A DNA stretch of 64,000 nt from a candidate division WOR-3 bacterium. Its GTDB lineage: Bacteria > Hydrothermota > Hydrothermia > UBA1063 > CAJXJZ01. Where the stretch lies: the NCBI GenBank assembly GCA_026986775.1, contig JALSNX010000028.1:7609-71608 (forward strand). Direction: 5' to 3'. Both the position numbers and the translations under genes were made by a program. Below the pieces are notes generated by a model. That model did not search any database and was not told the DNA's origin. It worked only from the letters and a program-made list of their open reading frames with translations. Position 1 is the first letter of the stretch. Every line of letters begins with the position of its first letter. Shown here one piece after another: positions 6,355 through 42,715 of the stretch.

Positions 6355-7215
6355 TTAAATATCAACACCGATTATTTTCCTTGCAAGAATACCTATGGCA
6401 AAGGATAAAAGAGCGACCCCGAAACTTATGAGGAACATTTCCCAGAAAGTTTTTTTGAAGTTTGCCCCCCTCACCACAGACACAAAAAATGTGAAAAAGT
6501 ATATTACAAAGAGTGCGGCAAAGAGTGTAAAGACAAATGCCACATAGTAGTGTTTAAATAAAAAGTACGGAATCACAATCAAAAAGACGGTAAAAATATA
6601 TGCTATTCCTGTATAAAATGACCCTTTTAAGGGATTTTTGTCACCCTCGTGCCTTCTTGAGAGATACTCAGAGGCAGCCATTGACAAAGAGGCTGCAATG
6701 CCCGTAATCACCCCGGCAAGCCCCACTAACTTTGTATTCCTGAGGGCAAAGGTAAGTCCGGCTATGGTTCCAGTTATCTCAACAAGGGCATCGTTTAGCC
6801 CCAGGACCATTGAGCCTATGTATTCTAATTTTTCTTCATTAAGCATATCAATAAGAGCGTTTTCATGCGTAACCTCATCCTGAATTATATGTTCTGCCTC
6901 TTCAATATGCCCCTTTATAGCTTCGTAAGACTTCTGGGCATCCTCCTCTCCCCCTTCCATGAGTTTAACAGCAAAGGTGATACCCATGATCCGTGCTATT
7001 ATGGTGTACAGAAAAACCCTGAGTCTATCGGGTTTTACATCCACACCGGTGTATTTTTTCCATATTTCATAGTGTGCCCTCTCATCCCTTGCTATTTTTT
7101 CAAGCACCTTTCTGTTTTCACCCTTTGCCATTTTTGCAAGTTTCAGATAAAAATAATGTTCTGTAATTTCATTTTTCTGAAATTCAATTATTTTTTTTCT
7201 AAGTCTCTCATCCAT
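6355..7215 (-). CDS. ferritin-like domain fused to VIT1/CCC1-family membrane iron/manganese transporter
   Basis: N-terminal rubrerythrin/ferritin-like helices (EITEHYFYLKLAK...DERAHYEIWKKY), then VIT1-type membrane part (GSMVLGLNDALVEITGTIAGLT). The track ORF starts at 7239, but ATG 7215 has SD AAGGAG 8 nt upstream and overlaps the upstream stop as ATGGATGA, so I prefer 7215. Confidence 0.75.
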   Translation of the reverse strand: MDERLRKKIIEFQKNEITEHYFYLKLAKMAKGENRKVLEKIARDERAHYEIWKKYTGVDVKPDRLRVFLYTIIARIMGITFAVKLMEGGEEDAQKSYEAIKGHIEEAEHIIQDEVTHENALIDMLNEEKLEYIGSMVLGLNDALVEITGTIAGLTFALRNTKLVGLAGVITGIAASLSMAASEYLSRRHEGDKNPLKGSFYTGIAYIFTVFLIVIPYFLFKHYYVAFVFTLFAALFVIYFFTFFVSVVRGANFKKTFWEMFLISFGVALLSFAIGILARKIIGVDI

Positions 7216-9235
7216 GTTGTTGCTCCTTTTTATTCCCAAGTCTATAAATCACGAATCTTTTATTTTCAAAAACTTTTCTTAATAAAGCCCTGCCACTTAT
7301 TTCAGTATCATCAATCTCCCTGTTGCAGATGATTTCGCGGGGCACAATGAAATAATCAATGTGATATTTATCAGAAAGGACTTCTTCTGGAAAATTTCCT
7401 TTACCCTCAAAGTATTCATCAATTTTCCGTGCTATTTTCATTCTTTTGTACCATTCTATTGCAAACCTTCTGTTAAACACACCTTTTCCGCCGTCAGTAA
7501 ACAGGACAAATACATTTCTTAATAACCTATTTCTTAGCCATACTCCTACAAGGTTATCTCTGTTCCAGACGTAAAAAACATCATTCTCATTGGTATGATC
7601 TTTTATCCATGAGAATACCTCATTTAATAACCACCTGTTTCTGTATTCTGGTAGGTAGCTTTTAATATTAACACTCCGCAAATATGAATTAAATATCTCC
7701 GTTTCATCTCTTAATATGCGGTTTATAGTATCGTCTTTCCCTTCACTATAATTACTCAAGGCATATAGACCGGACAAAAGAATCATTGAGGCAAGTAGAG
7801 TTTTGAAAGCAAAAAGGGAGTTCCTGACACTCCACAGATATGCGAACAATACACAGGCACTCAGAGCAATAACTAAATAAATTAATACTGGGACTGGCTT
7901 TTGAAGTAGAACGAGCCAGGATGAATAAAGAAATATGACATCTCCACTTAGTAAAATAAGGGAAATAAGCCATACCGGCCAATATCTTTTTTTTGAATAT
8001 AATAATAGACCTTTACTTTTTGTAAACACAAACAGTATACCCAGTATACCCGTCAATGGTAAAACCATAAACTCATATACAATATTAAAAATAACCAAAA
8101 TAGTGAGTAACCATAGAAAAATAATATTTTTCAAAAACAAATTGTTGATTTTAAATGAAATTATATTATAAAATGAACTTAAAAAGAGTATTAATAAAAT
8201 TACTCTAAAAAAAATAGTTACTCTGAGCAGTTGTAAAGACAATAATGGCTGAACGGGAAATAGAGAAGAAATAACCCCAATAATTGCACTTAATAATGAG
8301 AATATCACTAAATAGTGTATTTTCAATACATCTTTTTTTGCTAAACTCATTCTACCAGTATATGATAACATTTTGTATAAAATAGCATAAGAAATTATAC
8401 CCACTGGAAGCAATATAAGATATATGATATTATATTGCTGATCAAAGAACAAAAAAAGATAGCCACTCCTTAAGATACTTAGCCATTCACTGTCAACGAT
8501 TTTCAGATTCAAAATATGTACAGGAGTAAAACGATAATTCACTATAAAGTACAACGTCAATAAAATTATACTCCCAGCTAATACAATCAAAAATTTTGCT
8601 CTACTATCAAATTCACAAAATCTTGTCTTATAATAATAATAAAAAACTGCACCAATAATAGGTATAGGTGTAATAACATGAAATGCAAGTGCTACAAGTA
8701 GCATTATACCTGCCAGAACATACCGTTCCTTTCTGTAAAATGATATTGCTATTAGAGAAAGTGCAAAAGATATATTACGTGGAACAAGTCCATAGGGATT
8801 AAACACTCTAATGAAAGTAAATAAATATGGAGTTACAGGAGGGAGGAAAACAAGAGGTAAAAAGAGGCTGAATATTTTTCTTTTAGAAATCCAGTAAGAA
8901 AGGTCAAAAAGTCCCCAGAAGATTATGAACTTGGTGATAATATCCAAAATATTTATTATATTTAGTAGCTTAAGTTTAAATGCCCTGTGAATACCAATTA
9001 TTATATTATCGTATATAGTAAAATTTGTTTGTAAAAAAGTAGTGGTTAAATCGTGATTTAGCAACTTAGGATCAATCTTATGTATTATCTCAGGAAGATA
9101 ATGCCAGGCAAGGTCACCATATAAAGTGTAATGTCCGGGAAGAACAAGAAAACTAAACATCGTATAAATAGCAAAAATTAGTGACAGATAAATAAACCCT
9201 GTAGTGTTTTCTTCCAATTCTCTTAACTTCAACAT
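7208..9235 (-). CDS. large polytopic membrane protein of unknown function (many predicted TM helices plus a roughly 170-aa soluble C-terminal domain); possibly GT-C/O-antigen-polymerase-like
   Basis: 675 aa dominated by hydrophobic F/I/L-rich segments; hydrophilic C-terminus (EGKDDTINRILRDETEIFNSYLR...FVIYRLGNKKEQQHG); coding DNA visibly more AT-rich than its neighbours; no family motif I can name with certainty. Confidence 0.4.
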   Translation of the reverse strand: MLKLRELEENTTGFIYLSLIFAIYTMFSFLVLPGHYTLYGDLAWHYLPEIIHKIDPKLLNHDLTTTFLQTNFTIYDNIIIGIHRAFKLKLLNIINILDIITKFIIFWGLFDLSYWISKRKIFSLFLPLVFLPPVTPYLFTFIRVFNPYGLVPRNISFALSLIAISFYRKERYVLAGIMLLVALAFHVITPIPIIGAVFYYYYKTRFCEFDSRAKFLIVLAGSIILLTLYFIVNYRFTPVHILNLKIVDSEWLSILRSGYLFLFFDQQYNIIYLILLPVGIISYAILYKMLSYTGRMSLAKKDVLKIHYLVIFSLLSAIIGVISSLFPVQPLLSLQLLRVTIFFRVILLILFLSSFYNIISFKINNLFLKNIIFLWLLTILVIFNIVYEFMVLPLTGILGILFVFTKSKGLLLYSKKRYWPVWLISLILLSGDVIFLYSSWLVLLQKPVPVLIYLVIALSACVLFAYLWSVRNSLFAFKTLLASMILLSGLYALSNYSEGKDDTINRILRDETEIFNSYLRSVNIKSYLPEYRNRWLLNEVFSWIKDHTNENDVFYVWNRDNLVGVWLRNRLLRNVFVLFTDGGKGVFNRRFAIEWYKRMKIARKIDEYFEGKGNFPEEVLSDKYHIDYFIVPREIICNREIDDTEISGRALLRKVFENKRFVIYRLGNKKEQQHG

Positions 9236-10089
9236 TATTCGTTTTTCCTATGATGCTCCACTAGATTGCTTGTGCTTTTTACTGTTCCATCACTGTCAAT
9301 ATAAAATCTCCCACCATAAGGGTCTTGAGGTATTTTTTTCATATACCCCTTTTGTTTAAGTTCATTTAAATCATACGGTAATCTGCCCTCTTTCCTTTTA
9401 AAGGCCTCCACTGCCCTCTCTATTTTAAGAACTCCAAGTAAAGCCTTTTTTCTCTTTAAAAGTTCCCTTTTCCAGTTTTCATCATCTGTATTCTTAATCT
9501 GACCGTCAAGAATATTCAGTGCTATTTCTGTTCTTCCCGAGGCGTAATAGAGTCTTGATGCAAGAGAGGCGAGAAAGGCGCTGCGTTTTAATTTTGCTGC
9601 CTCTGTCATATACTCAGCAGCAAGGTCATATTTCTTCATGAAGTAAAAATAATTAAAACTCAGAAGGAAATACCAGAACCAATCGCTTTTTCTGTATTTT
9701 ATGGCCCTTTTCAAGACCTTTTCCGCATCACTGTATCTTTTAAAATCCCACATCAGATTCAACGAAGCAATATAGTAAATGTCAAAATAATACGGATTTA
9801 AAGCACTTGCCACTCTGTAAGCCTTAAATACAACATCCCCCACCCATTCTGGAAAGTATGGATGCTGTTCAAGTATGGTCGCAAGAAATACACGTAAATC
9901 AAGAGTAACCCAGAAACTTCTTATTCCCTCATAGTCCAGGCTCATAATTTTTTCTGCCTCTGGTGAAAGGAGAAAAAGCCCTGCATTGGCCTTTTGAATC
10001 TTCCTGTATCGGGATATCTCAGGAACCATATAGGAATTTGTAGCAATCAGAAGACCTGCCAGCAAAAACCCCAAAAACACTCTCTTCAT
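9235..10089 (-). CDS. secreted/anchored TPR-like helical-repeat protein with a type II secretion pseudopilin (GspG)-like C-terminal segment
   Basis: 284 aa; N-terminal hydrophobic signal/anchor MKRVFLGFLLAGLLIATN; helical repeats; C-terminus ERAVEAFKRKEGRLPYDLNELKQKGYMKKIPQDPYGGRFYIDSDGTVKS resembles the GspG pattern (x-G-x-YP ... L ... P-x-DPWG-x-x-Y). Its stop abuts the start of the 675-aa gene. Confidence 0.45.
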   Translation of the reverse strand: MKRVFLGFLLAGLLIATNSYMVPEISRYRKIQKANAGLFLLSPEAEKIMSLDYEGIRSFWVTLDLRVFLATILEQHPYFPEWVGDVVFKAYRVASALNPYYFDIYYIASLNLMWDFKRYSDAEKVLKRAIKYRKSDWFWYFLLSFNYFYFMKKYDLAAEYMTEAAKLKRSAFLASLASRLYYASGRTEIALNILDGQIKNTDDENWKRELLKRKKALLGVLKIERAVEAFKRKEGRLPYDLNELKQKGYMKKIPQDPYGGRFYIDSDGTVKSTSNLVEHHRKNE

Positions 10090-10859
10090 TTTATCTCTTT
10101 TTTCTGAAAAAAAAGAATGCTCAAAAGGATAAGAATAAAACTGTATATAAGCCCATATAGAAGGACAAGTATGTAATGTCCCGAACCGATTGAAAGCCCA
10201 TAAGAGAGCGATATCTTCATATCAAAGAAGGAAAAATTTGGAAAAATATAATACGCCGATTTTACAAGAAATTTTGAAATTAGAGGAATGTTCTCTGCTC
10301 GTTTTGTCTGAATAAATTGTACAGCATCGTCAAGATTGACACCAATCACGTAAATAAATAGTATTATGAAGGAAATAAGAACAGGCCGTTTACTGGCATT
10401 TATAAGAAAGTAAGCAAGAGAGGTAATAAGTAGCATCATAACCCATAAAAGTGGTAACTGAAGAAAAAGAACAGTTTTGAATTCTTTAAACAACAGGGCA
10501 TTGAGAATAACAAAGCCAGATAGCATGAGCGTGCTTGTAAAAATACCTGAAAAAACTATTCCGAAAACCCTTCCAAGGATATAATCCATTCTTTTCAGAG
10601 GCAGGGACAGCAGGTACTCAATGGTCTTTTTATTGAGGTCCTCTGTCAAAAAAGAAAAAATCAGGAAGAAGACAAGAACCAGAGTCAAAAACTCGGTGAC
10701 TGAAAGGGAATAGGTAAACATTACTTTTGATGCTTCAAACATGGTAAAATCATTTACAATGAAGTAAATAAAAAGCGAAAATAAATACAGAATCAATGTA
10801 CTGTAAAATGCCCTTTCTTTAACAGCCTCTTTAAGCGTGAGATACAGCATCCGCACCAT
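10086..10859 (-). CDS. ABC-2 type transporter permease
   Basis: 257 aa, about six hydrophobic segments; sits immediately after and overlaps an ABC ATPase gene; 4-nt overlap with the next gene. Confidence 0.75.
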   Translation of the reverse strand: MVRMLYLTLKEAVKERAFYSTLILYLFSLFIYFIVNDFTMFEASKVMFTYSLSVTEFLTLVLVFFLIFSFLTEDLNKKTIEYLLSLPLKRMDYILGRVFGIVFSGIFTSTLMLSGFVILNALLFKEFKTVLFLQLPLLWVMMLLITSLAYFLINASKRPVLISFIILFIYVIGVNLDDAVQFIQTKRAENIPLISKFLVKSAYYIFPNFSFFDMKISLSYGLSIGSGHYILVLLYGLIYSFILILLSILFFQKKEIK

Positions 10860-11580
10860 TGTTCAGTGCCTCCACAAAAATATCTTCAAGGCGTTTATTT
10901 AAAAGCATGTTCCTTTCTATTTCCTTTATGATTTTACCGCGATTTAAAATGAGAATCCTGTCACACATATCCTCTATGTCTTCAAGAATGTGAGATGTAA
11001 AGAATACTGTTTTGCCTTTATTTTTATGTTCAATTATGAGTTCTTTTGCCATCTTTCTCCCCAGGGGGTCAAGCCCGGAAAGCGGCTCATCTAAAATCAC
11101 AAATTCTGGACTACCAAGGAACGCCTGTGCAAGTCCGAGCCTCTGGACCATACCTTTTGAGTATTTCCTTATGGATTTTTTTTCACTGCCCTGTAAACCC
11201 ACTCTAAAAATTAAAGATTCTATGGTGTCTTTAATTTTTTTACTGTTTACCCCTCTCAATCCTCCTACAAAACTCAAAAACTCAACTGCATTAAGATTTT
11301 CAAAAAACACAGGGTTTTCAGGAAGATATGCTATTCTTCTTTTGATTTTAACATCATGTGTATAAGATCCGAACACCCTAACATTACCCTTATCCGGAAA
11401 TAAAAGTCCGAGCATAATTTTTATAGTTGTACTCTTACCCTGCCCATTAAGCCCAACAAGACCCAGTATTTCTCCCTTCTTTACCCTGAAGGATATGCCA
11501 CTGAGTACCTTCTGCATGGGACCACCAATATCTTTTATCCTGAAGGATTTTTCCACCTCTTTAAACTCAACGATTTTCAT
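10831..11580 (-). CDS. ABC transporter ATP-binding protein
   Basis: 249 aa; Walker A GLNGQGKST, signature-like YSKGMVQRL, Walker B FVILDEP, H-loop FFTSH. Confidence 0.93.
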   Translation of the reverse strand: MKIVEFKEVEKSFRIKDIGGPMQKVLSGISFRVKKGEILGLVGLNGQGKSTTIKIMLGLLFPDKGNVRVFGSYTHDVKIKRRIAYLPENPVFFENLNAVEFLSFVGGLRGVNSKKIKDTIESLIFRVGLQGSEKKSIRKYSKGMVQRLGLAQAFLGSPEFVILDEPLSGLDPLGRKMAKELIIEHKNKGKTVFFTSHILEDIEDMCDRILILNRGKIIKEIERNMLLNKRLEDIFVEALNNGADAVSHA

Positions 11581-11615
11581 CGCATTCTAAATTATAAGTT
11601 GAAAAATGTGGATAT

Positions 11616-11644
11616 AAAAAAAAGGGGGCCAGAGCCCCCTTTTT
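11616..11644 (-). terminator. Rho-independent terminator downstream of the pilin gene (symmetric, could act in both directions)
   Basis: aaaaaaaaGGGGGCcagaGCCCCCttttt: 6-bp all-GC stem, 4-nt loop, A-run on one side and T-run on the other; 17 nt after the pilin stop. Confidence 0.8.
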
Positions 11645-11661
11645 AGCTTCTACAATATTTC

Positions 11662-12168
11662 TTACTGGAGTACCCAGTTGTTACCACTCGGACCTGCTAC
11701 ACCATTAAAGTCATCCTGCTGTGCGACAGAGGCAGGACAGTCACCATCCTGAAGTAGGACATTGACATTTCCGTCAGCCTTATCAAAGTAAATACCCTGC
11801 ACGTCAGAATCTGCACCATAATAGGTATCACCATTTACGTGTTTTGTCACCATGGTGTAACTCACATAATTAGCATCTGTATGTATGGTGATAGAAACCT
11901 TTGTAGAGAGGTTAAATGTCTCTGTATGTGTACCATCACTGATTGTTACCTGGTTAGGTGCAGAAACCACACCGCCAGTGTTGCCATAGCTCTGCCAGTC
12001 AGCAAAGAATGCTTCCTCTGTGGTTCTTGCGTTTCTCAGGTCACTCTCTGCAGAGCCATTGTATGCTCTTATTCTGTATTTTGCGAACTGCGGTATGGCT
12101 ATTGCAGCCAGGATCGCAATGATTGCGATCACGATGAGGAGTTCTATCAGTGTGAACCCTTTCCTCAT
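11662..12168 (-). CDS. type IV pilin (prepilin-type N-terminal cleavage/methylation domain)
   Basis: 168 aa; MRKG/FTLIELLIVIAIIAILAAIAIPQF with Gly-1, Phe+1, Glu+5; SD AGGAGG 7 nt upstream of ATG; no other pilus genes in the window. Confidence 0.9.
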   Translation of the reverse strand: MRKGFTLIELLIVIAIIAILAAIAIPQFAKYRIRAYNGSAESDLRNARTTEEAFFADWQSYGNTGGVVSAPNQVTISDGTHTETFNLSTKVSITIHTDANYVSYTMVTKHVNGDTYYGADSDVQGIYFDKADGNVNVLLQDGDCPASVAQQDDFNGVAGPSGNNWVLQ

Positions 12169-12214
12169 GTTAATACCTCCTGTTTGTTTTTATTTTTCAC
12201 TTCACTAATTATAT

Positions 12215-12230
12215 AGCAATCTATATGCCA
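12215..12230 (-). promoter_or_regulatory. candidate sigma54 (-24/-12) promoter for the pilin gene; an overlapping sigma70-like reading also exists
   Basis: Minus strand TTGGCATATAGATTGCT has GG-N10-GC spacing as in consensus TGGCAC-N5-TTGCW. The same stretch can also be read as TTGATT-N17-TATAAT. Confidence 0.5.
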
Positions 12231-12282
12231 AATCAAACCCTTATTTTAAAAGCAATTTTAAGGATAATTTCGCATTTTCCAC

Positions 12283-12315
12283 TTGCAGGATGCAACTCGT
12301 ATTGCATTTTGCAAT
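12283..12315 (-). promoter_or_regulatory. two TTGCA-N3-TGCAA palindromes, candidate activator (enhancer-binding protein) sites upstream of the pilin promoter
   Basis: Plus strand TTGCAggaTGCAA (12283..12295) and ATTGCAtttTGCAAT (12301..12315); centres 19 bp apart, about 60 and 80 bp upstream of the -24 GG. Confidence 0.45.
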
Positions 12316-13670
12316 CATTTAATAAGCACCCCCCTATTATAACCTATATAAACCCTGTTATTAAACTCTGCAACGGCTGTAATCCCTTTTACTTCAGGTT
12401 GACCGGGATCAAATGTCTTCCAGTTGCGATGAGCAAAATCGTACATAACAACTCTGTTTGAAGATGCGAGATACACCGAATTATCAGAAGCAACACCGCT
12501 ATGGATGGATAAAAGGTTAAAGGGACTCTTTATAAGATTAATCTTTTTATCTGAAATTATAAATAGTCCCCTCCTTGCCGGCACGTAAATGGCACTATAA
12601 CCCTGAACAATGTAATTGGTTAAAATGGGTTCGTTTTCATAATCAACCTCATTTAAAACAGTATCTTTCAGGGTATAGAGTTTTCCATTCGCAATTAGAT
12701 AAATATCATTAAAAGAGGCAGTGGCATATTTTATAGGCATGATAGAAGTAAAATAGCGCTTTACAGAACCATCATCACTAACTGTAAGTATGCAATTTCG
12801 GGTTGCTATAAAGTTATAGGTTTCGGTATTGAAAGCACAGACAGCATCACCACAGCCTCCATCAAAAGATGTGAAGAAATACGGGTCACTGAGTGTATAA
12901 AAGCCGTTTTTGTTTAAAAGTAAAACGCTTTCACCGATATATAGAAAATCAACAGGACTGAACCCATACTGAAAACAGTCTGTGGAGAGAGAATTTACAT
13001 AATCATCAGAGATCTTCGTCACTCCGGCGGCATGAAGCACGTAAAGGGTATCAAACACTACACCTAACCGATACACAGGAGGCTCTATATTTATATAGAC
13101 TCTCTTTTTCAACTTCTTCATTCTTCTGTCAAATACATATACCCCATTTGCTTTGGTACCAACATAGTCCAGATCATATCCTCCAGCATAACCTGTTGGC
13201 TCAGAAAAAACGTGACAGGGATTTTCATATGTCCTTGTTTTAAGGTACAGGGGCAGAGAACGGGGCTTTGTTAAAAACATGGTATCTATATAAATAGCGG
13301 GCGCAGGCTGGTTAAACTTTGACAGGTATCGCCTGGTACCGTTCTTGTAAAGAAGCATTATTATACCTGCTGAAAACCCCATACCTACAACGCCTCCAAC
13401 CATACCCACCTTTTTTAACGATTCAAAAAAAGGAGAATATACGTAAAGCATTCCGTCTTTTGTAACAAACGCAATCTCACCTGAACGGGAATCATAAGAG
13501 GCAAGACGAACCCATTTTGTGGCATAGGATGAAACAATACCCTCGTTGTTATCATAAACAAAAATCCCGCCATCTGTTGCAGCACAAAATCCTCTGCCTG
13601 TAAACTGCATAGAATTTACATGGGAGAAATCTGCAAGATACAACGTGGCAAATAAGAACAGTTTAATCAT
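12315..13670 (-). CDS. hypothetical secreted protein, repetitive beta-rich (beta-propeller-like)
   Basis: 451 aa; hydrophobic N-terminus MIKLFLFATLYLA; recurring short motifs of the type G(G/I)xVYD / xLYVxS / NGxYxL; no enzyme motif recognised; start overlaps nnr stop by 8 nt. Confidence 0.35.
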   Translation of the reverse strand: MIKLFLFATLYLADFSHVNSMQFTGRGFCAATDGGIFVYDNNEGIVSSYATKWVRLASYDSRSGEIAFVTKDGMLYVYSPFFESLKKVGMVGGVVGMGFSAGIIMLLYKNGTRRYLSKFNQPAPAIYIDTMFLTKPRSLPLYLKTRTYENPCHVFSEPTGYAGGYDLDYVGTKANGVYVFDRRMKKLKKRVYINIEPPVYRLGVVFDTLYVLHAAGVTKISDDYVNSLSTDCFQYGFSPVDFLYIGESVLLLNKNGFYTLSDPYFFTSFDGGCGDAVCAFNTETYNFIATRNCILTVSDDGSVKRYFTSIMPIKYATASFNDIYLIANGKLYTLKDTVLNEVDYENEPILTNYIVQGYSAIYVPARRGLFIISDKKINLIKSPFNLLSIHSGVASDNSVYLASSNRVVMYDFAHRNWKTFDPGQPEVKGITAVAEFNNRVYIGYNRGVLIK

Positions 13671-15150: not shown

Positions 15151-15599
15151 ATTCCCTCCTTCTTCAACCTCTTTATCATTAAATCTATATGTGAACCTCT
15201 CCAGTAAATTTTATTGCATACTGGACAGAACTTAAACTCATTGAAGTTCTTATAAGTGAAATAGGGCACTTTACCCCTTACATTTTCATGGGGAATGTCC
15301 AAAAGAGGTGCATTACATTTTGAACATCTCGTAAGTATGCGGGGTTCTCTGATATTAAAATGCTTTATTACATCCTTTAGTTGTTCAAACAGAAAATCAC
15401 TTTCAAGCACATATACATTTTTATAAGGAAGGCGATTGAACTCTGTATTTCTCGTAAGAATAACCCTGTTTTCCGCATCAGCTATTTTTAAAAGTGCATC
15501 AGGTTCATGAAAATGCGTTGATTCTGTGTCCTGCCCGAGAAATCTCAACCATTTTGCAAGTTTGAGGACAGTAGCATCGCATAAAAACTTAAAACTCAT
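15132..15599 (-). CDS. Mut7-C RNase domain (DUF82) protein with C-terminal zinc ribbon
   Basis: 155 aa; N-terminus FLCDATVLKLAKWLRFLGQD typical of the family; CSKCN...CPVCN zinc ribbon. Confidence 0.7.
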   Translation of the reverse strand: MSFKFLCDATVLKLAKWLRFLGQDTESTHFHEPDALLKIADAENRVILTRNTEFNRLPYKNVYVLESDFLFEQLKDVIKHFNIREPRILTRCSKCNAPLLDIPHENVRGKVPYFTYKNFNEFKFCPVCNKIYWRGSHIDLMIKRLKKEGIWELLF

Positions 15600-16368
15600 G
15601 CTGAAGTTTTATGAGTATCTCCCTGAATAAAAATGCTGCCTTTGTGGCTGAATTTGTGGAGTGGTCCATAAGAGGTGAAAATTCCACTATGTCCGCTGCC
15701 ATAATGTTTTTAAGTAGCAGTATCTCATCCAAAATTTCCATTATTCCCTTTCCTCCCGGTTCTGGATTCGTAACGCCGGGAAATTCGGATGGATTGATTA
15801 CATCAAGGTCTAAAGTGAGATAAACTGGAGTTTTTATGTTCAAAAGCTCATTTCTGTAGTCTTCCCATGCGTAAAAGATATTTTTACTTTTTTCTTCGCA
15901 CGGTGCCTTTGTTCTAACTCCAACTGTAATTACATTCTCTTTGCCAATGAGTTTTTCCACGTGATACATGAAGGTTGCATGGTTATAAACCTCTTTTTCA
16001 AACTCAGGACGTCTGTCCATGTGTGCATCAAAATGCACCACCGTAAAATTAAGGTCAAGTTCTTCTTTCAAATATACGATTAGAGGGAAGGTAATAAAAT
16101 GGTCTCCCCCCAGTGCAACAAAAGGAGGAAATAGTTTTATGTCTTTTAACTTTTCTATAAGAAAATCCGCAAAATACTTTCCCTTTATATCAAGGGGCGG
16201 ATAAAAGTCTGAAAGGTCGTGGTATTCTTTAAGTTCTCTTTCCTGAATAACAGAGTAGTATTCTAAAGATGAAAGATGGTACCTTATAAAACCTGGTGCA
16301 AGTGCTGCACCTTTCTGGAAATTTTCACTGCCCTCATAGGGTATGCCAAATACACTAACCAATGGCAT
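15589..16368 (-). CDS. speB: agmatinase-family ureohydrolase (agmatine or N1-aminopropylagmatine ureohydrolase)
   Basis: 259 aa; Mn-binding ureohydrolase motifs GGDHFITFP, FDAHMD, LTLDLDVINP. Confidence 0.85.
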   Translation of the reverse strand: MPLVSVFGIPYEGSENFQKGAALAPGFIRYHLSSLEYYSVIQERELKEYHDLSDFYPPLDIKGKYFADFLIEKLKDIKLFPPFVALGGDHFITFPLIVYLKEELDLNFTVVHFDAHMDRRPEFEKEVYNHATFMYHVEKLIGKENVITVGVRTKAPCEEKSKNIFYAWEDYRNELLNIKTPVYLTLDLDVINPSEFPGVTNPEPGGKGIMEILDEILLLKNIMAADIVEFSPLMDHSTNSATKAAFLFREILIKLQHEF

Positions 16369-17173
16369 TTTTTATAAACTCCGGAAGGGCAAAGAGATGT
16401 TCCTGTATGCTTTTATTGTAGTATTTCAGTCCTTCAGGTATATAATCTCTTTTCACAACAAGTTCCGTATCCGTGGCAATGGTAAAACTCCAGAATCCCC
16501 CTGGATACGTGGGAACTGGAGCAAGATAAAGTTTTACCTCTTTAAAGAGTCTCTTAAGGTTCTTAATCTGCTCTTTTATAACACCAAGATGATACCATGG
16601 AGATTCAGATTGAAAAACTACAATGCCATCATCTTTTAAATTCTTTTTAATGCTTTTATAAAAATCAAGCGAGTAAAGGGCAACAGCCGGACCTACAGGA
16701 TCAGAAGAGTCAACAAAGAGAAGGTCAAACCTTTCATTTCTTTCATTTAAATATTTTACACCGTCCTCATAGTAAATACTGACTCTCTCATCTTTCAGAC
16801 GGGATGATGTAAACTCAAGGTATCTCTCGCTAACTTCAACCACCATCTTATCTATTTCTATGAGCAAAACAGATTCCACATCTGGATATTTAAGTATCTC
16901 TCTTACAGTGCCTCCATCCCCGCCCCCTATAACCCCAGCCTTTTTAACCTGTTCCTTAAAAGAAAAGGCAGGATGAACAAGCATTTCATGATAAACAAAT
17001 TCATCACGCTCTGTAAGCATCACAAGACCATCAAGAACCAGCATCCTGCCAAAAGTTTCTGTCTCAAAAACCTTTATTTCCTGATATGGAGACTTCGCAG
17101 AAAAGAGTTCCCTTTTTATTTTGAATATTATACCCGTTCCTTTATCGTGGAATTCTGTGAAGAACTGGTTCAT
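16355..17173 (-). CDS. speE: spermidine synthase-type aminopropyltransferase (canonical GGGDG type)
   Basis: 272 aa; VIGGGDGGTVREILK, LIEIDKMVV, VDSSDPVGPA. Confidence 0.9.
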   Translation of the reverse strand: MNQFFTEFHDKGTGIIFKIKRELFSAKSPYQEIKVFETETFGRMLVLDGLVMLTERDEFVYHEMLVHPAFSFKEQVKKAGVIGGGDGGTVREILKYPDVESVLLIEIDKMVVEVSERYLEFTSSRLKDERVSIYYEDGVKYLNERNERFDLLFVDSSDPVGPAVALYSLDFYKSIKKNLKDDGIVVFQSESPWYHLGVIKEQIKNLKRLFKEVKLYLAPVPTYPGGFWSFTIATDTELVVKRDYIPEGLKYYNKSIQEHLFALPEFIKNAIG

Positions 17174-17661
17174 TAAAAAAGCGCCACTCCTGCAAACACT
17201 GACACTATACCTTCTACTTTCCTTGATATGGTTTTCACCTTTATCTCTTTAACCTTTATACCCCTCATTTCCATGGCATCTTCAGCCATTTGAATAAGAA
17301 GTTTTTCCGCATCCTTTTCTGAGAGATACCCCGAATACTCCATTATCACACCATGCTCCATGGAATTTTCTGGAATGGCTACAGAAATGCCAGCGGTAAT
17401 GAGAGTGCCTTCCTCGGAGCTTTCAATACTTCCATAGGCAATTGGTAGCAGGCTACCTGCAGGAAGGGCTATGGAATTTTGCTCCCTTGCGCCTGGTGGT
17501 AAAATGCTGGATACTCTTATGAGATTGTATCTTGAAATACCAGCATCGTGTAATGCTGCATCAAAGGCATTAAGGTGGGTTCTGCCTCTGCCACTGCCTG
17601 ACACTATTATGAAATTTTCAGGCTTTCCAAACATAGGGCTTTTTGTCTGTAATGATAGCAC
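17173..17661 (-). CDS. pdaD: pyruvoyl-dependent arginine decarboxylase
   Basis: 162 aa; LNAFDAALHDAGISRYNLIRVSSILPP with the self-cleavage Ser-Ser site; alternative start ATG 17634 is possible. Confidence 0.9.
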   Translation of the reverse strand: MLSLQTKSPMFGKPENFIIVSGSGRGRTHLNAFDAALHDAGISRYNLIRVSSILPPGAREQNSIALPAGSLLPIAYGSIESSEEGTLITAGISVAIPENSMEHGVIMEYSGYLSEKDAEKLLIQMAEDAMEMRGIKVKEIKVKTISRKVEGIVSVFAGVALF

Positions 17662-18532
17662 CTTCTCTCATACTCTTTTTCATATATGGAGGAAGAACAG
17701 TCTTTGCAAAAAAGTATTCCGGGGTAAAGTAGTGTATCCTGTCCTTCAAAGCAGCAAATCGCTTTATCATGTCGTTTTTTCTCTCATTGAGCGCGTATTT
17801 CTTTGAAGCGATAAGAAATGCCCAGTTGAGCTGGAATGAAAATATATATTCATGATAACCGAATACAACAGGGAAAACCTCTTTCAATGTGGCACTAAGG
17901 GCTGATATAAACTCTGTGTACAGGTATTCTGCACTGCCTGCCTGCGCCACAAATACAGCATCAGGCGACATTCTGTCCTTCAGTATCTCATAAAAGTCCT
18001 TTGTGAAGAGGTATATGGCAGGTCCCTCCTCTACGGGCTCTGTAAGGTCGGATATAACCACATCAAAAGGCTCTCCACTGTATTCTTCCACAAATTTCCT
18101 TGCATCCTGAAATAAAACAATGCTTCTTTTGTCATCAAAACTACCATCATGCCACGAAGGCAGATACTCTTTGCACATTTTTACAAGTTCTTCATCAATG
18201 TCAACCATGTAAACTTTTTCAACTGGATGTTTTAAAACCTCCCTCAGGGTTGCGCCCTCTCCCCCGCCCATTATAAGGACATTTCGCGGTGCCGGATGAA
18301 GAAGCATTGCAGGATGAACAAGCATATCATGGTAAATATGCTCATCTATTTCTGCTGACTGCAATTTCCCATCAAGAAAAAGGGTTCTACCAAATGCAAA
18401 GAGATCAAGTATTTCAGCATACTGATACATTGTCTTTTTACCTGCCACATACCTCTTCACACGATACTGAAATCTTAAACCTTCAGTGTACGGCTCTTCA
18501 AACCACAAATTACTGTCCGGGTCCTTATCCAT
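17618..18532 (-). CDS. second aminopropyltransferase, GGGEG / DLTEP type (thermospermine-synthase / agmatine-triamine aminopropyltransferase-like)
   Basis: 304 aa; IMGGGEGATLREVLKH, MVDIDEELV, ISDLTEPVEEGPA. These motifs differ from the GGGDG/DSSDP paralog at 16355..17173. Confidence 0.8.
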   Translation of the reverse strand: MDKDPDSNLWFEEPYTEGLRFQYRVKRYVAGKKTMYQYAEILDLFAFGRTLFLDGKLQSAEIDEHIYHDMLVHPAMLLHPAPRNVLIMGGGEGATLREVLKHPVEKVYMVDIDEELVKMCKEYLPSWHDGSFDDKRSIVLFQDARKFVEEYSGEPFDVVISDLTEPVEEGPAIYLFTKDFYEILKDRMSPDAVFVAQAGSAEYLYTEFISALSATLKEVFPVVFGYHEYIFSFQLNWAFLIASKKYALNERKNDMIKRFAALKDRIHYFTPEYFFAKTVLPPYMKKSMREGAIITDKKPYVWKA

Positions 18533-18544
18533 ACACTTCCTACC

Positions 18545-18949
18545 TTACACGTATGCTTCTTCCTTAACTGAATCAGCATATTTGTACATGTCCTGCTCGC
18601 GGAAAACTCCACGCTTCATTTCCATTACAGTCATATGTCCCGGTCTGAAGTACTTTTCAAAGAGTTTTAAAGCCACATCTATATCAACATCATCAGAGCA
18701 GTAGAAATAATCTACAGCAGCATAACCATGTTCAGGCCATGTGTGTATTGAAAGATGGGATTCTTCTATTATAACCACACCTGAGACTCCATGTGGCTGG
18801 AACTGATGGAAGAATGAACCGAGGGCGTGGGCATTGGATTTTTTTGCTATATCAAGGAATGCTCTCTCAACCTGATCCTTATTTTTGAGGGTTTCAGGAT
18901 CACAATCATACATTTCTATTATTACATGCACCCCAAGGGCTTTTTTCAA
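18545..18949 (-). CDS. speH: S-adenosylmethionine decarboxylase proenzyme (small bacterial/archaeal class)
   Basis: 134 aa; self-processing site IIEE/SHLSIHTWPE; TTG start preceded by GGAGGTGGATAA. Confidence 0.9.
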   Translation of the reverse strand: MKKALGVHVIIEMYDCDPETLKNKDQVERAFLDIAKKSNAHALGSFFHQFQPHGVSGVVIIEESHLSIHTWPEHGYAAVDYFYCSDDVDIDVALKLFEKYFRPGHMTVMEMKRGVFREQDMYKYADSVKEEAYV

Positions 18950-40371: not shown

Positions 40372-41637
40372 TCAATGTTTTCTTTTACGTTTAAGCTCGA
40401 GATTGATTATTTTTGCTGCTCTTTTGAGAGCTTTATCTACAGGCAACACACCTCTAAGGGCATATTCAAGTCCTTCTGTTGAAAGATACCGTCTTCCTGT
40501 AAACCATGCAGGATTATTTGGCTCAAAATCACAGTAGGCCACCTGTTTCATGGCTTCCTCCATTCCGGGCACTTCTTCAAAGAATTTTTTCATCTCAGGT
40601 TGCTCAAAAGCACTCTTTGTCAGGGGAAGGTATCCTGTATGAACTGACCAGTAAGCTTGATTTTCCGGCCTCAAAAAATACTTTATGAACTCTATGGCAT
40701 TTCTTCTCTGCCAGTCCGGAACATCTCTATAAAGCGTTACATTTGTGCCTGATACAATAACTGTACTGTCTTTGGTTACTGCATCCATGGGAATCCTTGC
40801 AACACCAAGGTCAAAGTCTATCTTATCTTTCATAAAGCTGTAAGACACTATTGTACCCCATACCATGGCCACCTTTCCAGCAGCAAAATCATCCTGATGC
40901 TTATATCCTGTCGTTATGTAGGCACAGCTGTCCTTATACACAAGGTCATAGAGAAACTGCAAAGCCTCTACACCGGCTTTTGAATCAAAAACAGCTGAAT
41001 CATTAACTATGAGCCGACCACCCTTCTGGTAAAGCAACGTTGCAAACATCCAGACATCTATTACAAAAGCAGTACCATAGATGTCAGGTTTTCCATCTCC
41101 ATCTTTATCAATAGTAAGTTTCTTTGCTACTTCTCTGAATTCCTGCCATGTTCTTGGAAAAGAATCTATTCCGTATTCCCTGAAAAGGTCTTTGTTATAG
41201 TAATAAACAGGCACGCTTTTATTAAAAGGGAATGTAACAAGTTTACCATTCCATGTATTGTCCTTTATTAAAGGTGGAAATATATCTTCCAGCAAACTAT
41301 CTGGTATCATGTCCTTATACTCTTCCACTGGCACTATTTTCCCGGCATCCATTAATTCAGATGTCCACGACTCATATACCTGTGAAAATGTGGGGGGTCT
41401 TGAAGAGGCCACAGCCCCCATAATTTTTTGGGATAAAGTTGAATAATTACCAAGGTTAACCTGAACTATTTTCAAAGAATCCGGCACCTGTGCGTTATAG
41501 TTATTAACTATATTCAAAAGCGCCTCCCCGAGGGGACCTCCCATAGCATGCCAGAATACAGTCCTATTTGTATTTTTTGAAACGCAGCCAGCAAACAGCA
41601 GAATAACAAGAAGGATACTACTTCTTGCTTTTTTCAT
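40372..41637 (-). CDS. ABC transporter extracellular solute-binding lipoprotein (family 1, carbohydrate-type); no cognate permease or ATPase adjacent
   Basis: Lipobox LLFAGC. I prefer ATG 41637 (SD GAGGAG upstream) over the track start 41664. Typical SBP_bac_1-like length and pattern. Confidence 0.8.
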   Translation of the reverse strand: MKKARSSILLVILLFAGCVSKNTNRTVFWHAMGGPLGEALLNIVNNYNAQVPDSLKIVQVNLGNYSTLSQKIMGAVASSRPPTFSQVYESWTSELMDAGKIVPVEEYKDMIPDSLLEDIFPPLIKDNTWNGKLVTFPFNKSVPVYYYNKDLFREYGIDSFPRTWQEFREVAKKLTIDKDGDGKPDIYGTAFVIDVWMFATLLYQKGGRLIVNDSAVFDSKAGVEALQFLYDLVYKDSCAYITTGYKHQDDFAAGKVAMVWGTIVSYSFMKDKIDFDLGVARIPMDAVTKDSTVIVSGTNVTLYRDVPDWQRRNAIEFIKYFLRPENQAYWSVHTGYLPLTKSAFEQPEMKKFFEEVPGMEEAMKQVAYCDFEPNNPAWFTGRRYLSTEGLEYALRGVLPVDKALKRAAKIINLELKRKRKH

Positions 41638-42715
41638 TCCTTTTCTCCTCTTTTTTAGGTCCAAGAGGCATTGAATAAGTTAAGGCATATCTTAGATTAG
41701 CACCATTATTATTGAAACTATATATTTTACTGTCATCTGAAACATCAAGTCTGAAATTGCCAATATGGAACCCTACGCCATAGGTTATTCCTTTCCTTGC
41801 ACCTTCTTCGTCCCAAAAATACCCAAATCTAAAACTCAAAAGGTTATAAAAGGTGTATTCCAGTCCACCATGTTTCCATGCCTCGTTTAACACATATCCA
41901 AAACCCTTGTCTTCATAATCCTTAGAGATACCGACCAGTATTTTGTTTATATCCATAGATACTGTAAAACTGTGATAGGGCATACTCATTTTCAAAGCCA
42001 AACCATTTCTCATAAGATAAGGCAATGGGTCTTTTTCATCTGCTGACGATGAATACTTTATTCCCGGGCCGAAATTATCCAGTTGCAGGCCATAGGTGAC
42101 TTTCATTTTAAACCAGCTGGTTTTTGAATGAATCCACTCTTTCTCAAGAACTGTATAAAGCAGAGAGCCTCCAATTGCAAAAGATGCTCCCTTTCCACCA
42201 CCCTCTATGCCAGTGGCTTTTCGCAGAATTTCTGCCGGAGCAAGGAAGGAATAGATAAACTTGATATTAGTTCCCACACTGAGGCGTTTATTTACATCGT
42301 ACGCGTATGCGAGATTTGCAGCCACATCATAGGGGCGCCATTCTCCGTAGTACTCTCCATCAGGCCCATGCCCCTCAAACAATCCATAAGTGGCATATGT
42401 GATAGAAAGTCCTAAAGCTCCCACAGGAAGTGGTCTGGTCAAACCAATAAATTCATAATACATGTCAGGTGCAAGCCCCCTGAGCCATGGGGAATGCATT
42501 AACGTGATTTCAAAGTCTTTTTTAAATGCAATGGCAGAAGGATTATAGTATAGTGCGGTTGCATCATCCGCCACAGCGCAAAAAGCACCACCTAAAGAAG
42601 TGGCTTTGGCTCCGGGATATATTAACAAAAACACTGCACCTGCCTCAAAAGCAGACGCCTGAAGCAGTGTAACAAGGAATAATACTCCCATTATTTTTTT
42701 CACAAATCTATTCAT
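41618..42715 (-). CDS. outer-membrane beta-barrel, PorV / FadL / UPF0164-like
   Basis: 365 aa; signal peptide; N-terminal motif AVFLLIYPGAKATSLGGAFCAVADDATALYYNPSAIAF resembles (from memory) the PorV-family signature; alternating beta-strand pattern throughout. Confidence 0.5.
   Translation of the reverse strand: MNRFVKKIMGVLFLVTLLQASAFEAGAVFLLIYPGAKATSLGGAFCAVADDATALYYNPSAIAFKKDFEITLMHSPWLRGLAPDMYYEFIGLTRPLPVGALGLSITYATYGLFEGHGPDGEYYGEWRPYDVAANLAYAYDVNKRLSVGTNIKFIYSFLAPAEILRKATGIEGGGKGASFAIGGSLLYTVLEKEWIHSKTSWFKMKVTYGLQLDNFGPGIKYSSSADEKDPLPYLMRNGLALKMSMPYHSFTVSMDINKILVGISKDYEDKGFGYVLNEAWKHGGLEYTFYNLLSFRFGYFWDEEGARKGITYGVGFHIGNFRLDVSDDSKIYSFNNNGANLRYALTYSMPLGPKKEEKRNEKSKK

Follow-up and report, generated by a model that had tools for sequence, protein, structure and literature searches.

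A lone type IV pilin gene in a candidate division WOR-3 genome heads a conserved accessory cassette, probably of the PilGHI kind, followed by a lineage-specific DUF6798-family gene

Introduction

Why would a type IV pilin gene that stands apart from the rest of its pilus machinery be followed by the genes of an ABC transporter? The question is raised by a 64-kb stretch of the genome of a candidate division WOR-3 bacterium (contig JALSNX010000028.1; the whole stretch, positions 1-64000, is referred to here as the window). In it, a pilin gene precedes genes for an ABC ATPase, an ABC-2 permease, a tetratricopeptide repeat (TPR) protein and a 675-amino acid (aa) polytopic membrane protein. The original prediction for this locus took the four downstream genes to be one cassette unlike any described pilin accessory set. 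Here, we find that pilin, ATPase, permease and TPR protein are probably a new member of a known, poorly understood pilus accessory system and not an undescribed one, and that the oddest gene of the group, encoding the 675-aa protein, lies outside it.

The system in question is that of the PilGHI proteins, which reportedly were shown in 1998 to be necessary for Myxococcus pili. In M. xanthus, pilA, pilG, pilH and pilI form one operon whose deletions abolish pili; PilH and PilI are the ATPase and permease, respectively, and PilG is annotated as an “ABC transporter accessory factor” (PMC3546991, PMC3724824, PMC3924187). For M. xanthus PilG, the literature yielded only this label and that of “extracytoplasmic receptor”. 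PilI is listed with the ABC2_membrane_2 domain, and the Geobacter sulfurreducens gene order is given as pilA, two small genes, a “PilI” ABC-2 permease, a “PilG” with no domain and a “PilH” ATPase, with UbiA, GT2 and Wzm/Wzt after them (PMC6060248 supplement). From gene numbering and order, we infer that this “PilH” is GSU1501, which is XapD. PilA is undetectable in a xapD mutant (bioRxiv 10.1101/114900), and the role of PilGHI-type transporters is debated, Geobacter XapD being read either as an exopolysaccharide exporter or as a pilin factor.

Results

The pilin gene and the ABC trio form a conserved cassette

The genes at the centre of the locus are the following.

11662-12168, minus strand: pilin gene (168 aa), type IVa major-pilin-like, with leader MRKG, mature N-terminus FTLIELL and one Cys
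10831-11580, minus strand: ABC ATPase gene (249 aa), PilH/XapD-like by position; ABC_tran match, E=1.3e-27
10086-10859, minus strand: ABC-2 type permease gene (257 aa), with six transmembrane (TM) helices, PilI-like by position; weak matches to ABC2_membrane_3 and ABC2_membrane_2
9235-10089, minus strand: bitopic TPR accessory gene (284 aa), with a membrane helix, a periplasmic TPR domain and a GspG-like helix and hairpin
7208-9235, minus strand: polytopic gene of the DUF6798 family (675 aa), predicted to encode ~15 TM helices and a ~180-aa C-terminal periplasmic domain

Adjacent genes overlap by 29 nucleotides (nt) (ATPase and permease), 4 nt (permease and TPR) and 1 nt (TPR and 675-aa gene; TAATG). 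The tightly overlapped layout described earlier is therefore real for four genes, and a fifth overlapping gene, of the VIT1/rubrerythrin type, had been missed.

Relatives of the TPR protein numbered 83 in a word-indexed database, the closest named ones being from candidate division WOR-3. Their neighbourhoods were sampled by exact look-up and by scanning a single genome for each species (57 loci), which gave 64 loci in total, all annotated with hidden Markov models (HMMs) built from the window genes; loci are cited below by their sample numbers. The ATPase, permease and TPR-tail genes, referred to here as the trio, occur together in 53 of the 64 loci. Ten of the other 11 are cut by a contig end at the place of the missing gene, and in a Nitrospinota locus (L024, 377-1110) a VapBC-like pair directly upstream of the TPR-tail gene replaces the permease. 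Judged by eye, this pair comprises an antitoxin-like and a PIN-domain-like gene. The trio was found in WOR-3, Nitrospirota, Nitrospinota, Desulfuromonadales/Geobacter, Desulfobacterales and Aquificota. Its order is ATPase-permease-TPR in the window and most lineages, and permease-TPR-ATPase in Nitrospirota and Nitrospinota loci. The permease family HMM recovers the copies in related loci at 100-400 bits, and the homologue in L005 carries ABC2_membrane_2 (PF12679). The best NCBIfam matches of the ATPase, to GldA and DrrA, all fall far under the cut-offs.

The association extends to the pilin. Of the 36 loci with more than 3 kb of upstream sequence, 30 encode a protein with a prepilin leader on the same strand, no more than 4 kb upstream, and in 13 of these a sigma-54 motif precedes that gene. 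The full order pilB-pilT-pilC-pilS-pilR-pilA-trio is found in WOR-3 (L004, L012), in metagenome contigs (L006, L071), in Geobacter (L030) and in Desulfuromonadales (L038, L041, L042, L044). Pilin, ATPase, permease and TPR-tail protein thus constitute a conserved cassette, the pilin appendage in one widespread type of pilus cluster, and the comparison with Myxococcus pilGHI drawn in the original prediction is apt. The co-occurrence expected in related genomes holds for the pilin, the ABC pair and the TPR gene but not for the polytopic gene.

In the window, the cassette has become detached. We identified no further pilus gene in the 64 kb, either among precomputed Pfam hits (genes from position 630 to ~62400) or with our own PilT, PilC, PilS and PilR HMMs, which bears out the view of this pilin as a lone gene. 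The trio has stayed with pilA, although the remaining pilus cluster is not within the 64 kb. Because the trio remains beside pilA even where pilB, pilT, pilC, pilS and pilR are elsewhere, we argue that it works with the pilin and not with the assembly machinery.

The TPR accessory protein has a GspG-like tail

The AlphaFold model of the TPR protein has a predicted local distance difference test (pLDDT) score of 92.5. In it, an N-terminal TM helix is followed by a TPR domain, which leads into a helix of 30 residues and a short beta hairpin. Foldseek searches with the whole model returned generic TPR folds only. The tail by itself matches Pfam T2SSG under the cut-off (E=0.015) and, as a single sequence, GspG in the Protein Data Bank (PDB; E=0.014). 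When the family profile was compared with the PDB, GspG pseudopilins were the two best matches (E=1.3e-3, residues 211-270), with further GspG/EpsG chains lower in the same list. The aligned tail segment spans the GspG helix and its DPWG motif, which corresponds to an invariant DPYGG in the TPR-tail family. The protein starts with MKRVFLGFLLAGLLIATNSY and has no prepilin leader and no N_methyl match; it is therefore not itself a pseudopilin. Taken together, model and profile match indicate a pilin-like module carried on a periplasmic TPR scaffold, with borderline statistics, and the pseudopilin resemblance proposed earlier is retained at that strength.

A sigma-54 type promoter and a terminator flank the pilin gene

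The pilin matches N_methyl in Pfam (E=1e-8) and, over its N-terminal 62 residues, the Myxococcus PilA model NF041775 in NCBIfam (E=6.6e-15). Its leader is four residues long (MRKG|FTLIE). The regulatory elements around it are listed below.

12240..12312, minus strand: conserved TGCAA/TTGCA repeat region including an ATGCAAT-N5-TTGCAT palindrome, read from the sequence and its conservation in sister genome L070
12215-12230, minus strand: sigma-54 type -24/-12 promoter TGGCATATAGATTGCT, by consensus match, unique in the window
11619-11644, minus strand: intrinsic terminator 3' of the pilin gene, with an 11-bp stem, 6 GC pairs and a T-run
11591..11618, minus strand: candidate sigma-70-like promoter TTTATA-16-TATAAT for the ABC operon, matching 10 of 12 consensus positions, consensus match only

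The -24/-12 elements of TGGCATATAGATTGCT are correctly spaced and lie 47 nt 5' of the pilin ATG. The pattern TGGCAY-N5-TTGCW has this single match in 64 kb, against 0.17 expected, and the element is invariant in L001 and L070. The TGCAA motifs are also kept in L070 despite the diverged pilin coding region, and the repeat region is a candidate binding site for a PilR-type sigma-54 activator. The pilin gene thus has a sigma-54 type promoter and a terminator of its own, in line with what had been suggested. Between pilA and the ATPase gene lie this strong terminator and the sigma-70-like site, which overlaps the terminator T-tract; the ABC operon may accordingly be transcribed from its own sigma-70-like promoter or, alternatively, by read-through of the terminator.

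The 675-aa gene lies outside the conserved cassette

L070 is syntenic with the window over at least 18 kb, and the flanking proteins are 74-91% identical. In this sister genome, the TPR gene is followed directly by a formate-tetrahydrofolate ligase gene and there is no 675-aa gene. Likewise, no DUF6798 gene follows the trio in any other lineage sampled. The 675-aa gene is therefore outside the conserved cassette, apparently as a lineage-specific addition, and the earlier view of its product as an integral member is not warranted; the contexts of its family, described below, are not linked to pilins either.

The region of L070 also bears the mark of a loss. In the window, the 675-aa gene is followed by the gene below.

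6355-7215, minus strand: VIT1/rubrerythrin-type (MbfA-like) iron transporter gene; VIT1 E=6e-14, Rubrerythrin E=1e-4

Judging by how the gene is called in the close relative L001, its start codon is the ATG at 7215, which places its first 8 nt within the 675-aa gene. L070 retains its last 15 codons (FYLGIIARKISGIDI and the stop) at 9927-9974, corresponding to window 6355-6400, just upstream of the formate-tetrahydrofolate ligase gene. Because this remnant is a deletion scar, the deletion took place in L070. We detected no remnant of the 675-aa gene there, and loss together with VIT1 and insertion in the window lineage both fit. The third-position GC content (GC3) of the 675-aa gene, 0.271, is the lowest of 11 neighbouring genes, by a small margin.

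In the two genomes (window 11662-12330 and L070 6756-7429, promoter region included), the pilins are 47% identical overall; 48 of the first 59 residues are common, and the globular parts are essentially unrelated, so that the globular domain is hypervariable between sister genomes. The promoter region, in contrast, is 91% identical at the nucleotide level, with the sigma-54 element invariant. The window, L001 and L002 combine the 675-aa gene with one pilin allele, whereas L070, which carries the other allele, lacks it. This would be the pattern expected of an allele-specific pilin accessory gene, in a sample of two alleles and an eroded region. The Ser, Thr, Asp and Gly content of the pilin C-terminal half, previously taken as a hint of glycosylation, is indeed high at 37%, but it is 35% in the L070 pilin, whose genome lacks the 675-aa gene; the composition is therefore uninformative on modification.

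The 675-aa protein is probably a periplasm-facing glycosyltransferase

A word-indexed search with the 675-aa protein returned one relative only, at 92% identity, to which a family profile added three. The wider family was found by a full HMMER scan and comprises 113 representatives at 23-29% identity, of which 43 members were aligned. Homology to family members is full-length, with E values down to 1.7e-20. DUF6798 (PF20604) matches 35 of the 43 aligned members at E<=0.01 and 38 at E<=5. On the strength of this alignment, we assign the 675-aa protein to the DUF6798 family, with a predicted C-terminal DUF6798 domain following the polytopic region.

A manual topology model, which rests on the positive-inside rule, has 15 TM helices with the N-terminus inside, the short loops containing 23 Lys and Arg residues on the cytoplasmic side and 7 on the periplasmic side. 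In this model, the residues conserved in the family face the periplasm: D41, Y46, D62, R153, H186, W251, Q335 and R338 are each kept in 38-42 of the 43 members, D41 (42/43) and D62 (41/43) being located in the 55-residue first outer loop, and W543, R568 and R598 are invariant and belong to the C-terminal periplasmic domain. Three of the 43 relatives match EpsG (best E=1.9e-8), a family that we take to belong to the GT-C clan of Pfam. In one relative, P0089, the match (E=0.0034, 17 bits against a cut-off of 30.1) extends over residues 20-309, where P0089 is homologous to the window protein. In the case of the best distant relative, P0085, a GtrA-family gene (E=6e-19) overlaps the start of its gene from upstream, and the next gene downstream encodes a sugar epimerase. 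Based on this topology, the periplasmic invariant residues, the EpsG matches in relatives and the GtrA neighbour, the 675-aa protein is probably a GT-C/EpsG-like glycosyltransferase that uses a polyprenyl-phosphate sugar at the periplasmic face. The earlier guess at glycosyl transfer agrees with these same observations. The analogy with TfpO, by contrast, finds no basis in the sequence, as there is no Wzy_C, other Pfam or PDB match, and the gene is not adjacent to pilA.

Elsewhere, genes of the DUF6798 family have GtrA and epimerase genes, a generic TPR protein or unrelated genes as neighbours, and none of the four other contexts seen includes a pilin or ABC gene. In L007, the product of the generic TPR gene that precedes the DUF6798 gene proved unrelated to the TPR-tail protein of the window. 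In metagenome locus L008 (1532-5619), a DUF6798-family gene follows those of two large proteins (704 and 657 aa), one with a weak DUF6541 match, and this run may consist of paralogous membrane enzymes. A periplasm-facing GT-C-like active site would be the first functional lead for the DUF6798 family.

Differing enzymes fill the slot downstream of the trio

The position occupied by the 675-aa gene in the window is filled differently in other lineages. In Desulfuromonadales, it holds a 257-283-aa polytopic gene, confirmed as a prepilin peptidase in L038. In Nitrospirota (L017 10668-11501; L011 8835-9671), it holds a UbiA-family gene above the NCBIfam cut-off for decaprenyl-phosphate phosphoribosyltransferase, an enzyme type that starts the mycobacterial arabinose-donor pathway. 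In Desulfobacterales, it holds the gene for a polytopic protein of 576-626 aa that ends in TPRs and whose first loop contains an invariant DD, at the following positions.

L005 8889-10661; L040 9758-11512; L045 9804-11684; L060 9754-11484: Desulfobacterales polytopic gene

The membrane part of this protein has no Pfam match, and it looks like a PMT/TMTC-type enzyme. Kinship with DUF6798 was considered for it and dropped (profile-profile probability 0.7%; BLASTP of the L005 protein negative). Because enzymes of lipid-linked sugars recur beside the cassette, the idea of pilin modification is kept alive, unproven.

The 675-aa gene as passenger or as module member

Two further readings turn on the 675-aa gene. 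According to one, which we place a little short of an even chance and which is compatible with our explanation of the cassette, it and the VIT1 gene are unrelated passengers, and its product is an envelope-glycan transferase or polymerase. Its absence after the trio in L070 and all other lineages, its GC3, the company that its relatives keep, and the iron-transporter gene that follows and overlaps it are all as expected of a passenger. The VIT1/rubrerythrin-type gene itself is probably functionally unrelated to the pilin cassette. Less easily accommodated are the tight start/stop overlap with the TPR gene, which implies co-translation with the pilin cassette, the lack of a terminator or promoter between the two genes, and the recurrence of a glycan-enzyme slot after the trio in other lineages.

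According to the other reading, essentially that of the original prediction, the four downstream genes are one pilin export and modification module in which the 675-aa protein acts as a TfpO/TfpW-like pilin glycosyltransferase supplied or assisted by the ABC and TPR proteins. We consider this unlikely. It draws on the same overlap of start and stop codons, on the resemblance to a periplasm-facing lipid-linked-sugar transferase, on the tracking of the pilin allele in the window, L001 and L002 compared with L070, and on the glycan-lipid enzymes found after the trio in other lineages, namely, the UbiA of Nitrospirota, the polytopic-TPR protein of Desulfobacterales and the UbiA and GT2 of Geobacter. 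The allele correlation, however, concerns two alleles only, and L070 has also lost most of the VIT1 gene, so that the region has simply eroded there. In addition, the 675-aa protein has no Wzy_C or other pilin-glycosyltransferase signature, no GT2 or flippase gene adjoins its gene in the window, the four other DUF6798 contexts are without pilin or ABC genes, and the L070 pilin is just as rich in Ser and Thr where the enzyme is absent.

Window context

No Rfam family matched at gathering thresholds in positions 1-64000. Immediately upstream of the pilin promoter lies a 451-aa open reading frame (12315-13670) without Pfam or NCBIfam match; it is 58% identical to its copy in L070 and has diverged further than most neighbours. 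A polyamine cluster at 15589-18949 contains agmatinase-like, two spermidine-synthase, pyruvoyl arginine decarboxylase and AdoMet decarboxylase genes, a set typical for thermophiles in which polyamines are long or branched. A type IX secretion system is indicated by a PorV homologue and by a C25 peptidase with Por_Secre_tail (41618-42715 and 49467-52385), in keeping with a likely WOR-3-like member of the FCB group.

Discussion

The trio, together with the pilin that it follows, is probably of the PilGHI/XapD kind. We file it there because it occupies the same position in the same pilB-T-C-S-R-A cluster type. By position, the TPR-tail protein is likely to be the equivalent of Myxococcus PilG. 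The “PilG” of G. sulfurreducens sits between permease and ATPase, as the TPR-tail gene does in loci of the permease-TPR-ATPase order, and the Nitrospirota loci L011 and L017 share the order permease-TPR-ATPase-UbiA with G. sulfurreducens. The claim that the locus matches no described accessory set consequently fails for three of its four genes, which are in PilGHI or GSU1499-1501 position.

We envisage the locus in two layers. The first (11580-12230 and 9235-11580) would be a detached copy of the cassette in which pilA is joined by its accessory ABC trio, as known from type IVa pilus clusters of the Myxococcus and Geobacter type. ATPase, permease and TPR-tail protein would form one inner-membrane complex acting on the pilin pool, which would use the TPR domain and pilin-like tail on its periplasmic side to recognise pilin or the assembly platform; the complex would affect the stability of pilin, its handling in the membrane or its delivery to the assembly machine. 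That such a complex is needed for the pilin pool is held with less confidence than the identity of the cassette. The second layer (7208-9235) would be a lineage-specific DUF6798 enzyme, translationally coupled to the TPR gene in the window lineage only. We regard it as a recent add-on whose sugar acceptor could be the pilin, an envelope glycan being at least as likely; glycosylation of the pilin by this protein is thus possible, if unsupported.

Several observations weigh against these assignments. To our knowledge, no experiment shows a substrate moved by any PilGHI-type transporter. The similarity of the TPR tail to GspG is borderline (E ~1e-3) and covers ~60 residues only, and no recognisable pilin lies upstream of the trio in 6 of the 36 loci. 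On DUF6798, for which the cut-off is 26.9 bits, the window 675-aa protein reaches 14 bits, and it has no significant match among curated families in Pfam or among solved structures in the PDB, by sequence or by profile. Its structure model, built on a 5-sequence alignment, is unusable (pLDDT 44.6), and the top Foldseek matches of that model, to the GT-C proteins DPY19 and ALG6, are not significant (E>=0.057, TM-score 0.15). The correspondence of GSU1499-1501 to the trio rests on gene order and not on alignment, and xapD is usually described as an exopolysaccharide exporter in the Geobacter literature. Finally, in the published tables for Anaeromyxobacter and Vulgatibacter, a “PilG” and a TPR protein are distinct entries beside PilI.

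The description of XapD leads to a further reading, in which the trio exports a polysaccharide or lipid-linked glycan, its link with pilA reflects co-regulation of surface structures and mutants lose their pilin as an indirect effect. Mutants of xapD make ~50% less exopolysaccharide, the window ATPase is nearest to ABC-2 exporters of the GldA/DrrA/NodI type, UbiA, GT2 and Wzm/Wzt are located downstream of the trio in Geobacter and Nitrospirota, and a GT-C-like gene is located there in the window. On the other hand, the separate Wzm/Wzt pair downstream in Geobacter could handle polysaccharide export, and in WOR-3 L004, L071 and L006 the trio follows pilA with no glycan genes nearby. In the window, moreover, the trio is still beside pilA after separation from everything else, and its accessory protein has a pilin-like tail, not a polysaccharide co-polymerase or OPX-type domain. 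In view of these points, we think glycan export improbable as the function of the trio, more so than the single export and modification module. Least probable of all is the far-reaching proposal that the ABC-2 transporter and TPR-tail protein are a dedicated inner-membrane extractor, chaperone or quality-control machine for pilin that recognises its client through the pilin-mimicking domain, a universal partner of this class of type IVa pilins in at least six lineages, to which DUF6798 was recruited here as a pilin glycosyltransferase of a new kind.

For the PilGHI/XapD assignment that we prefer, the cassette offers three handles. The trio stays with the pilin gene across lineages, two deltaproteobacterial orders among them, even when the pilus machinery genes are elsewhere; a periplasmic TPR subunit with a GspG-like module suggests that pilin or the assembly platform is recognised directly; and differing enzymes of lipid-linked sugars recur in the position downstream of the trio. 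With these, pilin-handling and glycan-export models become separable by experiment.

Comparison with known systems

The known systems that resemble parts of the locus differ from it in instructive ways. In GspG, the helix, the following loop and strands and the DPWG-type motif align with the last ~75 residues of the TPR protein. Unlike GspG, the window protein has no GFTLxE leader; it has an ordinary membrane anchor followed by the TPR domain, and its tail contains two short strands only, so that the likeness is a resemblance between domains and not membership of the family.

The 675-aa protein recalls the Gtr systems (GtrA flippase, GtrB and a GT-C transferase) and EpsG. Its relative P0085 is encoded right after a GtrA-family gene, three relatives match EpsG across the TM domain, and conserved Asp residues lie in the first periplasmic loop. 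In contrast to these systems, the window has neither GtrA nor GtrB beside the 675-aa gene, and the window protein is under every Pfam threshold.

Pseudomonas aeruginosa TfpO/PilO (Wzy_C type) and TfpW (GT-C) are large polytopic proteins encoded downstream of the pilin gene that vary with the pilin allele. The 675-aa protein is also large, polytopic, encoded downstream of a pilin and variable between relatives with different alleles. Its gene, however, lies 2.4 kb downstream of pilA, past a terminator and three genes, its sequence has no detectable relation to Wzy_C or known pilin transferases, and the DUF6798 family is not generally linked to pilins.

In G. sulfurreducens, GSU1499-GSU1501 comprise a permease, a no-domain protein and an ATPase after pilA in a pilB-T-C-S-R-A cluster, and the Geobacter and Desulfuromonadales genomes sampled carry the TPR-tail trio in this very place. 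The order there is permease-accessory-ATPase, whereas in the window it is ATPase-permease-TPR; the genes downstream are UbiA, GT2 and Wzm/Wzt rather than a DUF6798 gene, and the literature reads the system as an exopolysaccharide exporter.

A close parallel by position is M. xanthus PilG-PilH-PilI (MXAN_5782-5780; TCDB 3.A.1.144.5). The trio is known in three gene orders, each of which is a cyclic permutation of the other two: Myxococcus has accessory-ATPase-permease, the window ATPase-permease-accessory, and G. sulfurreducens and Nitrospirota have permease-accessory-ATPase. Apart from this difference in order (G-H-I in M. xanthus, H-I-accessory in the window), the M. xanthus genes are reported as one operon, whereas in the window a strong terminator lies between pilA and the ABC genes, and the window cassette is detached from the pilus machinery genes. 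In both organisms, one ATPase, one ~250-aa ABC-2 permease and one extracytoplasmic accessory protein are encoded directly downstream of a pilA that is sigma-54/PilR-dependent in M. xanthus and preceded by a sigma-54 type promoter in the window, and the related loci of the window have the same pilB-pilT-pilC-pilS-pilR-pilA cluster type as M. xanthus (PMC3546991, PMC3924187).

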